Source: a virus (lineage: Duplodnaviria; Heunggongvirae; Uroviricota; Caudoviricetes). Taken from it: 23,250 bases of DNA. The position numbers are program-made. The stretch is taken from the IMG/VR virus record IMGVR_UViG_2778261136_000011. One strand, given 5' to 3'. The first letter of the stretch is position 1; each line of letters opens with the position of its first letter. Of the stretch, positions 6,001 to 18,000 are shown piece by piece.

Positions 6001-9000
6001 GAAGGCGGATGCGTTACAGAGTTTTAACTCGCTGGCAGACAGCAGTCTGGCAAAAGCTAAATCGGACGCACAGGCTGCGTTTACGAAACAGCAGGGGCGA
6101 GCCTCTCTTGTTGGCGCTGGTTTGGGTGCGGTAGGTGCATATGCGATGCATAAGGCTGGCGGTAGCGGAGGAAGTGGCGGTGCTAAAACACCTGGCACCG
6201 GCGCTAATGCCATTCAGCATCAGGCTCAGAACTGGAGACTGTGATTATGGAGTACGGTAAATACGAAACACTTGCGAGATACGGTTATACCGGAGCTGCC
6301 CGTCCACAGGGGGACTGGCAGACGTCAGCAGCGCTGACACGCCAACAATACGACGACTGGCGAACCAGATATTTGCCCCGCGTGGCAAGGCTGGCTGACC
6401 TTGGCGAGAACAACAGCCTGATGAATGCACAGCTTGCCCGGGTGGGCGGCCTTGCCACTTCCAGTCTCCGTACAGCGCAGATGGCGCAGGATAACCAGAT
6501 GGCGAGATACGGGGTAAGCCGCCCAGATAATCCCGACAGTAATACGCTGGGGTTACGTAATGCCCTGGCAATTGCTGGCGCGAAAAATGGTATCCGTGAA
6601 GCCGAACAGGATCGCCAGATGAACATACTGACGGGGGCTTCTGCACCGGCAAGACAGAAACTGAGTGTTAGCGGACAACTGGTGGCAGCGTAAGGAGGAA
6701 ATATGGGATACGGTTTACTGGATATTGCAAATCAGTCGCGGCGTGAGGCATTACAGGGAATAAGTGACGCAGACAGACGACGCACAGAGATTGAGGCATC
6801 AAATAAACAACTGGCTGCTCAACAGAAAGCTCAGAAAAAACAGAATATCGGTACGGGCATTGGTACGGGGGCGGCTATTGGCGCATCCGTTGGTGGTCCT
6901 GTTGGCGCTGTTGCTGGTGCAGTAATTGGCGGCATTGCTGGTTCTTTGTTTTAAGGAGTGGTGAATGAGCGGATTTGCACAGGGGTTACTTGCCGGATTC
7001 AGCACTGTTGACCAGGCAATGACCCGTCGTAAAGAGCTTGGTTTGCGTGAGGCACAGCTTGCTCAACAACAGAAAAATAACGAGCGCGATTTTGAATTTG
7101 CGCAGTCTCAGTTTGAGCACCGGAAAGAGAATGATCAGCGTACATATGATCTTAATGTCAGGAATGCTGACCGTGAATATGCGCTGAAAGAGAGGGAACA
7201 CAAAGCAGCGCAGAATTATCGAAATGCGTCACTGGGTATGGAGCAGCAGCGACTCCAGTTGCAGAAATACAACCAGCGACGGCTTGAGTATAACGATATG
7301 CTGGCGCGCGATCAGCCTGTGATGGCTGCGCTTGGAAAGGCTGTGGATGCTGGTGATCGGGATGCGGCAATGCGTCTTTACGGGCAGTTGTCAGAGGGTA
7401 ATCCGCTGAGGCTGATGGCGAATGATGGCTATGCAGCGAAAGCGGGGCAGGCCGTGAACAACCTGCAGAAAATCTTTGATGATAAGCCGGACAGGGCGAT
7501 TGCTTCGCTGAATACCCCGGAAAATCTCGATGTGCTTTCCGGCGTGTTTGCCCCGGAACTACAACAGCGTATTGGCATGCCTGATTCAACCGGGGAAAAG
7601 ACAATAAAAGAGGCCAGGATTGGCAGTATCGTACCGGCGCAGCAGGAAGGGTACGTACTTATTGGTCTTGATCTCACATACAGCGATGGCTCCAGCGCGC
7701 ATAAACCTGTAACAGAATACGGCAGTGCACATCCTGATGATCAAACCGTGCTGGCGATACCCGTTGATAAGGCTGTCGCTCTTGTCAGGGATCGCAGTAA
7801 ATTCGCGGAAATTTCGAAAAATTACGGTTATTTCATGCCGCAGCAGCAGGGACTTTCTCTGGCGAAACTTCAGGAAGGAGCCAGCAACGTAGCGGCGGAC
7901 GCGATCAAGAATGGCCGTGATGCTCAGGCTGAGGTGGATGAATATTATGCTGCGAATGGTTCACAGCCGCATCAACAGAAAATTCAGCAACAAAAACTTC
8001 AGCAACAGGTTATCAACTGGGCGGGAGATGATCCTGATAAGCTGTTATTTGCCAGAAATGTAGCGGCCCGTCAGCCTGAAATGCTGGAACCTCAGAATCA
8101 GAAATTGCTGGAGAACGGGTATGCGAATTTTCTCCGTATTCAAAAGGCCAGGGGGGAACAGGCCAGAGATGAAAGTGCTTCATCTGCATCTCAGTTTATC
8201 CGTGGACTGAAACAGAATTACGCCCAGTAATTCACGATATTCCATTAACACCATTTCCTGATGCCCGGCCATTGTGCCGGGTTTTTTTATGGAGTCTGTA
8301 TGGCTTATTCCGATGAACAGCGCCCTGAAGCGCAATTTGGTAACCAGAACCGTAACAGCCTGAACATTCAGCAGCCTGGCGAGACAGACAGCTATGATGC
8401 GTTTTTCTCCGACCCCAATCGCTGGAAGGACAACAGCACGTCGTTCAGCCTGGGCGATGTATTACCAACTATAGGGAAAGGTGTCGCCCAGTCTGTCCGC
8501 GGAACAGGGGAAATGGCCCGTGGACTCGGTGATGCGATGATTCAGAGCCCAGTGAAAACAGGGGCGCGTATTTTAAATGAGTTCAGCCGTATGGGGCTGC
8601 CGGGTGTCGCAACTGTTCAGGATATTTTTGTCGGCGGCAGCAAGGGGGGGGATGAGGTCATCGACACTCTGCCTGATGGAAAAAACGCGGTTACTGATAC
8701 TGTTGGTAAAGGTCTGAAGGCAAGCGGTAAGGCAGTCAGTGATGGTGCTAAAGTATCGGATGAATGGCTGACCGGTAAGATGTCGCCGGGTGCTGTTCGT
8801 GCGCTGAATACGCCGATGACCGAAGGCTATGATGATTCTGCGGTCTGGGTGGCGAAGGGTGTAAACCTGATTGGTGCGCTTGTACCTGATATGGTTGCTG
8901 GCGGTGTGGCTAAAAAGGTGGGTGATGTCACACTGCGAAAAATGCTGACCGCCGGGCTGGAGAAAAAATACATCGCGGCAGGGATGCAGCCGGAAAGAGC

Positions 9001-15000: not shown

Positions 15001-18000
15001 ATTCCTGGTCAGTAACTTCATCCGTGACGTGCAGACGGCGGTGATGAACCTGAAGGCGGAGCAGGGAAGGAGCGACGGCAAACTGAAAGGGCTGGATAAC
15101 TTATCTGCACTGGCTGTGGTGAAAGACAGCCGGTCTGCCATGTCTGCCGTATACGCCAGTCTGCGTGGTAAAACCCTCACGGGCAACGGTGCGCAGTGGC
15201 AGAAGGTGTGGAAAGAGTTTGTTGAGGACGGAGGTAAAACCGGCTGGTTTAACATGGGTGACCTTGAAGGCCAGCAGAAGGAAATGGATCGCCTTGTATC
15301 GCTGGCGAAGGGAGGATGGAAAGGCCAGAGTATCGGTGCATGGAATTCGTTCCTTAACCTTGTCGAGGATGCCAACGGGGCGGTTGAAAACGCTCTGCGT
15401 CTTTCTGCCTATAAACACGCCCGTGATGCCGGTTTGTCACGCCAGCAGGCGGCGTCTCTTGCCAAAAACATGACGGTGAACTTTAACCGTCGTGGTGAGC
15501 AGGGAGCGCTGATGAACTCGCTGTACATGTTCGCCAACGCCAGCATTCAGGGGTCCGCAAACCTGGTGAGAACGCTCGGACATCTTAATGGCGACGGGCC
15601 GTTACTGGAGCGCCTTCGCTGGAAGAATCTCAATGTACCGCAGAAAATCGCGCTTGCAGCTGTGGGAGCGGGTTATCTGCTTGGCTCGCTTAACCGCAGT
15701 GTTGCGGGGGAGGATGATGACGGGGTTAACTGGTATGACAAGGTGCCGTCTCATGTGAAAGAGCGTAACCTCGTCATTATGAAATCGGTGTTCGGGGGCA
15801 AGGCCGGAGAGTACTGGAGTATTCCTCTGCCTTACGGGTACAACGTTTTCTTCCTGCTCGGGCATACTGCTGAAGGTGTGGCGGCAGGTGACCTGACGGC
15901 GTCCCGTGCTGCCGGTAATGTTGTCGGTGGTATCCTGGGGGCATTCAGTCCTGTGGGCAGTGAAACGTCGGAAACACTGTCCGGGGCATTGCTGAAAAAT
16001 GCAGCGCCGACCATTCTGCGTCCGTTTGCGAACCTTGCCATGAATGAAAACTTCATGGGGGCGCAGATTTACCAGGAGAACATGCCGTTTGGTACACCAA
16101 AACCTGACAGCCAGCTGGGAAGACGTTCAACGCCAGAAGCGTACAAGGCGTTTGCATCCTGGCTGAATGCGTTCTCAGGTGGCAGCCAGTATCGTCCCGG
16201 CGCGGTGGATATCACACCGGAATCGCTGAAATTCTGGATTGACTATATCTCCGGAGGGACAGGGCGCTTCATTTCCAAAACCACGGATGCGGCGGTGAAA
16301 TCGCTGAATGGTATTGATATACCGGAGCAGCAGGTGCCTTTCCTGGGGAAAATTTCAGGTGAGGTGATGCCGTATACTGACCAGCAGAAGATGTACGACC
16401 GGATGACAGAGGTCGCGCAGTATCACGCAGAGCTGAAGAGTCTGACCGGTGCAGAAAGAACGGCATTCATTGACGAGAACAACGGAAAATTGTCGATGAA
16501 CGGGCTTATGCAGGATACCCGGAAGAGACTGAAGGATTTGCGCAAACAGCGCGATGCCATTTATGCCGACAGTTCTCTCAGTCTGGCGCAGCAGGCGGCG
16601 ATGGTGAAATCGGTAGAGCGGGATATGAAGGTTGCCGTGGATCGCTTTAACCGCGAGTACAACAAAAAAGTGGGAGTGGAGTAACAGAACATGCCCCGTA
16701 CGGAAGTGCGGGGCTGATTAAGAAATAAACACTCATTGACCTGTAATAACTGGAGCTATTAACATATAGTCAGAAAGAGCATTTCATGTGATACAGAGAG
16801 CCGATTTATGTTTAATGAAGAAAAAGTTGCGCAAATGGCAGCGTATTTGCTGAAAAAGCATGGCGGATCTATGCGTTTCATTAAGCTGAAGCAGCAACGG
16901 TAATGGCGAATAGCATTTATGAGCAAAATAATCTTGATATGTTATTAGGCGATCTGATGTAACCGGGATGATGTTCACCCCTGCCATTTGACATCCTCCA
17001 CGCCCTGAAGGACGGGGTTTTACAGCGCACCGGATAAGATTCGGTGTTTTGTTGAAAATACTGTGATAACAAACAGAAAACCCGTCAGTAAGACGGGCTT
17101 AGCAAGCTGGGACGGTTACTTTAATAATTTCAGTGCCTTTACATCCACTTCAACACTGCTCAGGTCTTTATCAATTTCACCCTCAATTCTTACTTTGTCT
17201 TTCGGAGAAATATTCTGCCCGGCCCATACGCTGTCATCAATATCCGTGACAATTGTCCCGCTATTGTCACGAAACTCATAACGTTCATTACCCACTTTTT
17301 TAACGATGCTCCCTTCAAGGATAACCCATGCATCATCCTTCAGTTCTTTTGCCTGCGCTACTGTTGAACGCTCTGCTTCAGGCCCTTGGAAACCGCCCTG
17401 CTGTGCAAAAGCGCCAAAAGACACACCGGAAATAAGTGCTGCAATCAATACCTTTTTCATTCATAGTCCTCTTTCAGAGATGAACATTCAAACAGCATTT
17501 TCAGTATGGTAAAGCGCGGGTGCGTTGAGGATGCCTGACACATCAGAGGTGGCGGGAGATTATTCCCCCGCCAGGTCTCTTACTTCTCAGATTCGTAGTC
17601 TACGAAGACAGCGACCTCCGTCTGACCGGTTCGGATTCCTACCTCGCAGAGGTCTTTCCTCGTTACCAGTGCCGTCACAACAACGGTAATACAGATGACG
17701 ATCAGGGCGATTAACATCGCCTTTTGCTGCTTCATAGCCTGCTTCTCCTTGCCTTTCGGCACGTAAGAGGCTAACCTACGTTTGTGAAGCATAGATTGGG
17801 CCTCAGATTAATGTTAAGCGTCCTGCAAGACGCGTAATGTTAACTGGGGCTTTTCTATGTCTGCCTTACGGCGGCATGCCCGAGGCAGACAGCCTCAAGC
17901 ACCCGCAGCAATTCTACTTAACTCTTCTTTCCCCGCAAACCGTTTTTATCCCCAGCGGCAAATCGAATACACCATCAGCGCTACCGCCATTGCAATACCA

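Follow-up and report, generated by a model that had tools for sequence, protein, structure and literature searches.

A stretch of 23,250 nucleotides (nt) from a tailed phage (IMG/VR virus record IMGVR_UViG_2778261136_000011; the whole stretch is called the window here) raises the question of what one very large gene, encoding 2,794 amino acids (aa), does at the end of a virion operon. An earlier note on this DNA, made from the sequence, had suggested an injected multi-effector protein of polyvalent type. The gene was assigned by sequence to the giant virion protein of the 933W/Sp5/phi24B group of short-tailed Shiga toxin (Stx) phages, and its product is likely a virion-internal giant polyvalent protein, probably ejected, in which a conserved delivery backbone carries exchangeable enzyme cargo. 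The statement in the note that short-tailed Stx phages carry an open reading frame (ORF) of similar size was correct, the window itself being such a phage.

8300..16684, + strand: giant ORF, 2,794 aa plus stop codon; orthologue of Sp5 ORF80/ECs1242 and of phi24B gp47

In the ORF listing of the window, a single uninterrupted plus-strand ORF covers 8261..16684, with 2,807 aa from its first ATG. The likely start is the ATG at 8300, since GGAG is located 8 nt upstream, a hairpin and T-run lie just before it, and RefSeq/PGAP orthologues begin at the equivalent position. Thus, the uninterrupted frame 8300-16684 first noticed in the sequence was confirmed by the ORF listing and the RefSeq start, and residues are numbered from the methionine encoded at nt 8300. 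The PHROG family phrog_616 aligned across the whole length of the giant ORF. The gene is already known: it has been characterised genetically (PMC5155283), and RefSeq annotates the orthologous products as 'LPD5/LPD38 domain-containing protein'.

An assembly chimera, or homologues always split into ordinary structural genes, had been considered as outcomes that would speak against a giant protein. The frame proved to be real. It was found at full length in 186 records of Stx phages and related short-tailed phages, with 96-98% DNA identity over the full giant ORF (e.g., PA2, VT2-Sakai and Stx2 II), and protein clusters of 2,771-2,795 aa represent thousands of E. coli sequences. The full-length protein search returned near-identical E. 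coli proteins only; diversity was seen through queries with distant relatives and in a library clustered at 50% identity. The distant homologues are likewise single giant ORFs, of 3,066-4,647 aa, in Salmonella, Vibrio, Ralstonia, Burkholderia and Bacillus phages:

Salmonella prophage homologue: 3,130 aa, single ORF
Vibrio phage D66 homologue: 3,066 aa, single ORF
Ralstonia phage GP4 gp68: 3,224 aa, single ORF
Burkholderia phage CSP3 homologue: 4,647 aa, single ORF
Bacillus phage Dartukuta homologue: 4,203 aa, single ORF

A split-gene reading suggested by Salmonella 'short forms' of about 1,600 aa was ruled out, as the locus carries the intact 3,130-aa ORF. This homologue (locus 5426-14818) is recorded as a 1,605-aa product, and no gene is called in the 4.6 kb upstream. 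Many database members of the family below 2,000 aa are probably truncated gene calls or contig ends.

Compared with the PA2 allele (PA2 locus 9001-17382), the window gene shows only allelic differences, including one codon indel. The rate of nonsynonymous substitution (dN) was 0.012, and its ratio to the synonymous rate (dN/dS) was 0.115 overall and 0.05-0.27 across segments, with 0.19 for the linker described below and the highest value of all segments, 0.27, for the MuF_C domain. Thus, the giant protein is under purifying selection, its linker included. The synonymous rate was uneven, ranging from 0.03 in the linker through 0.23 in the second peptidase domain to 0.47 in aa 1-100, which suggests recombination between alleles within the giant ORF.

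For the orthologues, it has been established by others that the gene is essential, that it is needed for tail-bearing particles, and that the protein is present in virions but outside the ordered density, the last point according to the phi24B preprint. Sp5 ORF80 (ECs1242, 2,793 aa) was among nine newly identified essential morphogenesis genes; upon its deletion, DNA was packaged and heads looked normal, while no tail-fibre antibody was bound (PMC5155283). Sp5 ORF79 was essential for tail formation in the same work (PMC5155283). In phi24B, gp47 was abundant in the virion proteome and missing from the model obtained by cryo-electron microscopy, in which capsid, portal, two adaptor rings, nozzle, six fibres and needle are all assigned to other proteins (10.64898/2026.04.10.717836). 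Of the four Sp5 'tail formation' genes, two are nozzle and needle, and the others are ORF79 and ORF80. Since the phi24B tail structure, as described in the available part of the preprint, is built from other proteins, ORF79 and ORF80 are candidates for internal proteins needed for a stable tail-bearing particle. In addition, Burkholderia phage JC1 gp69 (4,515 aa), annotated with the LPD38 domain, ranked second among the virion proteins by mass spectrometry (PMC9144972), and LPD38 falls inside the C-terminal module of the Stx phage protein. Very large putative ejection proteins of podophages have been noted before (PMC8402733).

The deletion phenotype allows a different explanation, namely that the protein is a tail-assembly factor, e.g., an energy-using AAA+ ATPase, rather than a delivered effector, and that its presence in virions is incidental. 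The mutant heads lacked tails, a COG1483 (AAA+) match was reported for Sp5 ORF80, and its authors proposed that it acts as an AAA+ ATPase (PMC5155283). However, neither Pfam nor NCBIfam gave an ATPase domain, and the sequence contains no Walker A motif of the form [AG]xxxxGK[ST]. The protein was also abundant in purified virions of phi24B, as was an LPD38-bearing protein in JC1 virions, and its domains are among those that serve as effectors in polyvalent proteins (PMC5512222). A role as assembly factor is therefore very improbable. The AAA+ identity itself was rejected, as there was no match to a P-loop NTPase family besides the missing Walker A motif.

The domain organisation of the protein was assigned as follows:

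8597..9679, + strand: N-terminal module (N-module), aa ~100-460, Gly/Ala-rich, delimited by composition, hydrophobicity and an iterative profile
9680..10996, + strand: acidic linker rich in Pro, Glu and Gln, aa 461-899, from composition
10997..12679, + strand: mobile cassette, aa 900-1460, comprising a helical head, LPD5 (aa 1051-1200), zincin 1 and LPD1 (aa 1361-1440)
11843..12610, + strand: zincin-like metallopeptidase 1 (zincin 1), aa 1182-1437, CLCA_X type, H1284-E-W-F-H1288-S-L-D1291 with an invariant upstream H1263
12707..13294, + strand: zincin-like metallopeptidase 2 (peptidase 2), aa 1470-1665, H1551-E-I-I-H-H1556 with a distal E1607, HExxxH-type family
13547..13825, + strand: MuF_C domain, aa 1750-1842, Pfam PF18819 (E 2e-16), between peptidase 2 and the C-terminal module
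13862..16681, + strand: C-terminal module (C-module), aa 1855-2794, mostly helical with a small beta domain
15728-16345, + strand: LPD38, aa 2477-2682, from Pfam, within the C-module

The Pfam matches to LPD5 (E 1e-44), LPD1 (E 1e-23) and LPD38 (E 4e-48) all scored above the cut-offs. When Pfam was run on eight tiles with E-values up to 10, nothing significant was obtained for the N-terminal region, the linker, both HExxH regions and the front of the C-module. Weak tile matches to Gly-zipper and Peptidase_M76 families were not counted as evidence.

The catalytic part of the protein was assessed by the conservation of metal ligands. The two HExxH motifs previously seen in the sequence were found at aa 1284 and aa 1551, and both lie in conserved zincin-like domains. 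An HExxH or HExxxH motif and a third metal ligand are conserved across homologues at both sites, and both are conserved predicted zincin-like peptidase domains with a zincin fold. The region aa 1182-1437 matched NCBIfam CLCA_X with E 2e-44 and 152 bits, and zincin 1 is, by sequence, a homologue of CLCA_X outside the curated subfamily. Its motif HEW[FW]H..D is retained in 118 of 120 distant homologues. The cassette alignment contains 41 invariant columns, including H1263, H1284, E1285, H1288, E1375 and E1382, and at least 90% of the sequences retain D1291; the AlphaFold2 (AF2) model of the cassette had a predicted local distance difference test score (pLDDT) of 78. In peptidase 2, H1555 and E1607 are invariant and E1552 is nearly so, and the local sequence HEIIHH can be read as HExxH or HExxxH. 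Of 130 relatives, 100 have a domain of this type directly before the C-module, 75 with HExxxH and 21 with HExxH.

The CLCA_X zincins are a sister family of the self-cleaving CLCA_N metalloprotease, and their members occur mainly in phages and plasmids, often in proteins of more than 1,000 aa (Lenart et al. 2013, PMC3650047). Zincin 1 shares with them an HExxH motif followed by a conserved Asp; it differs in that LPD5 and LPD1 invariably enclose it, the three forming a single cassette. No biochemically tested CLCA_X member was found in the literature. LPD5 is possibly enzymatic.

This cassette appears to be mobile. It is 37% identical to aa 1603-2141 of the Bacillus phage Dartukuta protein and is present in 22-30 of 133 relatives, at differing positions, and free-standing cassette proteins of 560-880 aa occur in many genomes. 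Free-standing forms of LPD5-zincin-LPD1 (11450-12679 in the window), of about 560-600 or about 870 aa, were located on long bacterial contigs, e.g., of Rhodobacteraceae and Selenomonadaceae. In contrast to the copies in giant proteins, these forms carry cysteines, 0-6 each among the 12 listed.

The MuF_C domain, an insertion in this lineage, was found at this position in only 9 of 133 relatives. MuF_C has been classed as a predicted RNase or RNA-binding domain of the PBECR/BECR fold (Iyer et al., PMC5512222). The phi24B preprint, which lists LPD5, LPD1, LPD38 and MuF-C in gp47, labels MuF-C a metallopeptidase degrading peptidoglycan (10.64898/2026.04.10.717836). This label appears to be a mistake, since no HExxH motif occurs within MuF_C, the domain has been described as having the BECR RNase fold, and the zincin sites are elsewhere, at aa 1284 and aa 1551.

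This bears on the function that the same preprint proposes for gp47, an ejection protein forming a periplasmic conduit (10.64898/2026.04.10.717836). The giant protein itself would then conduct the DNA across the envelope, as a fused protein functionally equivalent to T7 gp14/15/16 or P22 gp7/16/20, with a metallopeptidase digesting peptidoglycan. Moderately hydrophobic Gly/Ala-rich helices in the N-module and the C-module would fit, and no other obvious conduit protein was identified in this phage. The relatives in GP4 and CSP3 also have an N-terminal SLT lytic transglycosylase, a domain type that T7 gp16 bears as well. However, the domain labelled as metallopeptidase has no HExxH motif and belongs to the BECR RNase fold, and the true zincin domains both resemble protein-directed endopeptidases (MtfA, PPEP, lethal factor, CLCA) and not cell-wall peptidases. 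Pfam found no SLT or lysozyme domain in the Stx phage protein. A classical transmembrane helix is also absent from it, the highest 19-residue Kyte-Doolittle mean being 1.38, and no sequence or fold similarity to T7 gp14-16, P22 gp7/16/20 or N4 gp50-52 was detected. In N4, moreover, the giant virion RNA polymerase is cargo, ejected with 'beads-on-a-string' domains, and smaller proteins form the channel (PMC12633501). Hence, a conduit made by the giant protein itself is considered unlikely. It is partly compatible with a delivery protein, as the conserved ends could contribute to a channel.

The ends of the protein were examined across the family. The Gly/Ala-rich N-terminal region of the earlier note was borne out, with 26-32% Gly plus Ala in aa 100-500; it contains moderately hydrophobic Gly-zipper-like segments at aa 182-200 and aa 407-425. 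The iterative profile detected the N-module in 68 of the 111 relatives of full length, in each case close to the N-terminus; in CSP3 it is placed after the SLT domain. The acidic, proline-rich linker also proved to be as described, with 40-44% Pro, Glu, Gln, Ser and Thr and a net negative charge in aa 500-900. The linker (aa 461-899) is probably disordered, and it is covered by few relatives, being specific to the enterobacterial lineage.

The C-module is far more widespread. In the library clustered at 50% identity, it was found in 8,564 clusters at E <=1e-3 and in 4,778 at E <=1e-30, and the proteins carrying it have about 2,000-5,200 aa. Among the matches listed, its alignments end within a few tens of residues of the protein C-terminus, and the 129 newly retrieved representatives have a median length of about 2,700 aa and a maximum of 5,181 aa. 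An AF2 model built from a 50-sequence alignment reached pLDDT 85.6 and a predicted template modelling score (pTM) of 0.84. Foldseek of the C-module against the PDB gave no relative (best E 0.13, TM-score about 0.1), and sequence and profile searches of the PDB gave nothing meaningful, only low-complexity or coiled-coil noise. Thus, the C-module has a confidently predicted fold that, as modelled, has no relative among solved structures. The earlier note could not assign the C-terminal region; it is the family-defining module and not an effector of unknown type.

Between the ends, the domain content varies among relatives of the C-module:

GP4 gp68, other domains: SLT, LPD3
CSP3, other domains: SLT, Eco57I-type methylase, helicase (Helicase_C), LPD3
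Dartukuta, domains: ParB, inorganic pyrophosphatase, LPD5, LPD1, LPD23, GNAT, ART
Metagenomic and genomic relatives, domains: phage lysozyme, SNF2, GGDEF, RadC, methyltransferases

As judged from these sequences, conserved ends (the N-module, and peptidase 2 with the C-module) define the family, and the middle is swappable. The assignment to the polyvalent type was substantiated by the Pfam domains LPD5, LPD1, MuF_C and LPD38 and by the differing effector domains that relatives carry on the same backbone. The Stx phage protein has at least two unrelated effector-type domains (two zincins, MuF_C/PBECR and the possibly enzymatic LPD5) and family-specific LPD domains, it is phage-encoded beside virion genes, and its domain content is variable between orthologues.

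The polyvalent proteins described by Iyer et al. 2017 (PMC5512222) are likewise large, multidomain and located among late genes. Shared with them are the zincin metallopeptidase (MPTase) hub domain, here in two copies, a PBECR-type MuF-C and LPD domains. Peptidase 1 matches the MPTase variant of PMC5512222 with a His at the end of strand 2 and an Asp three residues after HExxH, and the peptidase 2 family corresponds to the HExxxH variant. PMC5512222 defines only a 189-aa LPD38, whereas the conserved unit found here has about 940 aa, is C-terminal and is paired with the N-module. No mention of the fixed-end arrangement or of cysteine depletion was found in the accessible text of PMC5512222. The additions made here are modest refinements: the architecture with fixed ends, the size and unsolved fold of the C-module family, the zincin classification, a corrected label for MuF_C and the depletion of cysteine.

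Among known phage proteins, Sp5 ORF80, the corresponding ORF of the 933W group and phi24B gp47 represent the same gene, with the same last position in the late operon and the same domain set. Bcep22 gp75, JC1 gp69, CSP3 and GP4 gp68 (Lessievirus/Gervaisevirus) share the C-module with 26-28% identity over about 800-900 aa. The Bcep22-like and GP4-like giants also have a peptidase 2-type domain just before the C-module and are encoded by the last gene of the virion module, and their phages have a virion core in common with the Stx phage (portal, adaptor, nozzle, T=9 capsid). They differ by an N-terminal SLT transglycosylase and LPD3 and by the lack of LPD5, CLCA_X, LPD1 and MuF_C; the Stx phage protein, in contrast, has no cell-wall hydrolase and no DarB-type domains.

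The last difference matters for a further explanation, a DarB-like anti-restriction protein packaged to shield incoming DNA from type I restriction. GP4 gp68 and JC1 gp69 are annotated 'DarB-like antirestriction', and phrog_10089, which bears a DarB-like label, matches aa 2352-2682 of the Stx phage protein. However, this match is confined to the shared C-module, and the label derives from methylase and helicase domains that are present in CSP3 and, according to its paper, in JC1 gp69, but neither in GP4 gp68 nor in the Stx phage protein. An anti-restriction function of this kind is thus scarcely credible. The DarB identity as such was rejected, as Pfam and NCBIfam found no N6-adenine methylase and no superfamily-2 helicase domain.

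A further likeness is to the N4 virion RNA polymerase gp50 (~3,500 aa), a giant protein with loosely linked domains that is packaged into and then ejected from a T=9 podovirus. The part of gp50 required for its packaging includes a zincin MPTase domain, and in N4 encapsidation is served by the C-terminal region. The Stx phage protein differs from it in having no RNA polymerase module.

The amino acid composition of the protein is also unusual. Neither the Stx phage protein nor four phage relatives of 3,066-4,647 aa contain any cysteine, 120 close homologues have 0 or 1 each, and 103 of 129 family representatives have none, the overall cysteine fraction being 0.014%. From the usage in neighbouring virion genes (0.65%), about 18 cysteines would be expected in the giant protein, and the probability of zero is about 1e-8. 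We infer that the protein is adapted in this way to the tail channel and to the oxidising periplasm, both of which it would have to cross.

The favoured interpretation, an internal virion protein that delivers enzymes, can be phrased as a sequence of steps, in which we infer the ejection itself, the order in which the parts leave, cleavage of the protein by its own peptidases and the targets. The conserved ends would most likely serve to build the protein into the procapsid close to the portal and to bring it out via the tail, a role that would also account for the loss of tails upon deletion of the gene. The cargo in this phage would be the cassette of LPD5, CLCA_X-type zincin and LPD1 together with the RNase-fold MuF_C. 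After receptor binding and release of the tail needle, the protein, its domains unfolded or only loosely connected, would pass out as a chain through the channel of portal and nozzle, a mode of exit consistent with a long disordered linker and with the almost complete absence of cysteine. Once in the cell envelope or the cytoplasm, the domains would act: the peptidases might process the polyprotein into its active parts or target host proteins, and RNA might be bound or cut by the RNase-like domain.

Several observations weigh against this interpretation. P22 ejection-protein mutants do not show the tail-less phenotype of the deletion, which could mean a direct role in assembly. The N-module profile is Gly/Ala-rich, and its weaker matches could reflect composition and not homology. 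The CLCA_X score of zincin 1 (152 bits) is below the NCBI cut-off of 260. No similarity of the C-module to solved ejection proteins (T7, P22, N4) could be detected, so that its 'backbone' role is deduced from position and conservation only. Cysteine depletion could instead reflect capsid chemistry. The injected multi-effector role suggested in the earlier note nevertheless agrees with published virion proteomics (JC1 gp69 and phi24B gp47), which places these proteins in virions, and the giant protein most likely enters the cell together with the DNA.

The genes surrounding the giant ORF were also analyzed:

1-1626: nozzle homologue, upstream of the giant ORF
1623-2891: needle homologue, upstream of the giant ORF
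6965..8230, + strand: upstream partner gene, homologue of Sp5 ORF79/ECs1241, 421 aa without cysteine; phrog_601
8263..8290, + strand: terminator-like GC hairpin (stem 8263-8282) and T-run, between the ORF79 homologue and the giant ORF
16693..16714, + strand: GC-rich hairpin, 9 nt 3' of the giant ORF stop; PA2 homology stops just beyond

The giant gene is the final gene of the late/virion operon, following the nozzle, needle and ORF79 homologues, which places it in the structural module as anticipated. Five small genes, the ORF79 homologue among them, lie between a low-GC island and the giant ORF. These five genes at 5093-8230 (133, 243, 150, 83 and 421 aa) are syntenic with the five preceding the giant ORF of Vibrio phage D66 (D66 locus 1546-5482), with weak similarity (22-44% identity); the ORF79 homologue is 25% identical to D66 gene 20. 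Therefore, the five upstream genes and the giant ORF form a conserved block of six genes. In relatives, too, a gene sized like the ORF79 homologue precedes the giant gene. Three of the five upstream products lack cysteine.

The hairpin at 8263-8282 is strong, GC accounting for 6 of its 7 pairs. It lies inside the late operon and overlaps the ATG at 8261, the alternative start further upstream. It would require read-through, e.g., by Q-type antitermination, or may set the ratio of ORF79 to giant product. The low-GC island at 2900-4700 (39-40% GC compared with about 51% on either side), amid the tail genes, contains an outer-membrane-protein gene (phrog_557), a membrane-associated protein gene and a Lom gene, which are typical morons. 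In PA2, a MokW/Hok-like gene is next after the Lom gene.

Downstream, homology to PA2 ends about 30 nt past the giant ORF stop, where PA2 has attR. The segment 16685-23250 is a degraded lambdoid early region on the minus strand, with several genes annotated as pseudogenes and with YdeI-like, Hok/Gef, DUF551, Ea22-like, TraR/DksA, BRO and antirepressor genes. In E. coli O22:H8 strain 154 (99.9% match), this early region abuts ynfF. The arrangement 3' of the giant ORF looks like a hybrid or tandem prophage.

Taken as a family, the C-module with the preceding peptidase and the N-module could, as a tentative proposal for which the odds are somewhat less than even, represent a previously unrecognised, widespread and cysteine-free injection backbone of T=9 podophages of the 933W/GP4/Bcep22 type, fitted with interchangeable effector cassettes. 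By analogy, a backbone with plugged-in cassettes may be likened to polymorphic toxin systems. In this proposal, the absence of cysteine would allow the backbone to thread its way along the tail. The conserved ends define thousands of giant phage proteins, so a structure or delivery data for one member would inform all. The swappable middle could yield anti-host enzymes that have yet to be characterised. Shiga-toxin genes are spread through E. coli by short-tailed Stx phages, in which the giant gene makes up about 14% of the genome. If the protein is an injected enzyme carrier, it would act in a newly infected cell before any other phage product, with possible effects on host range, defence evasion and lysogenic conversion. 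If the backbone proposal is true, the Stx phage cargo would act on E. coli at entry and might influence host range or multiple lysogeny, the latter being known for phi24B.

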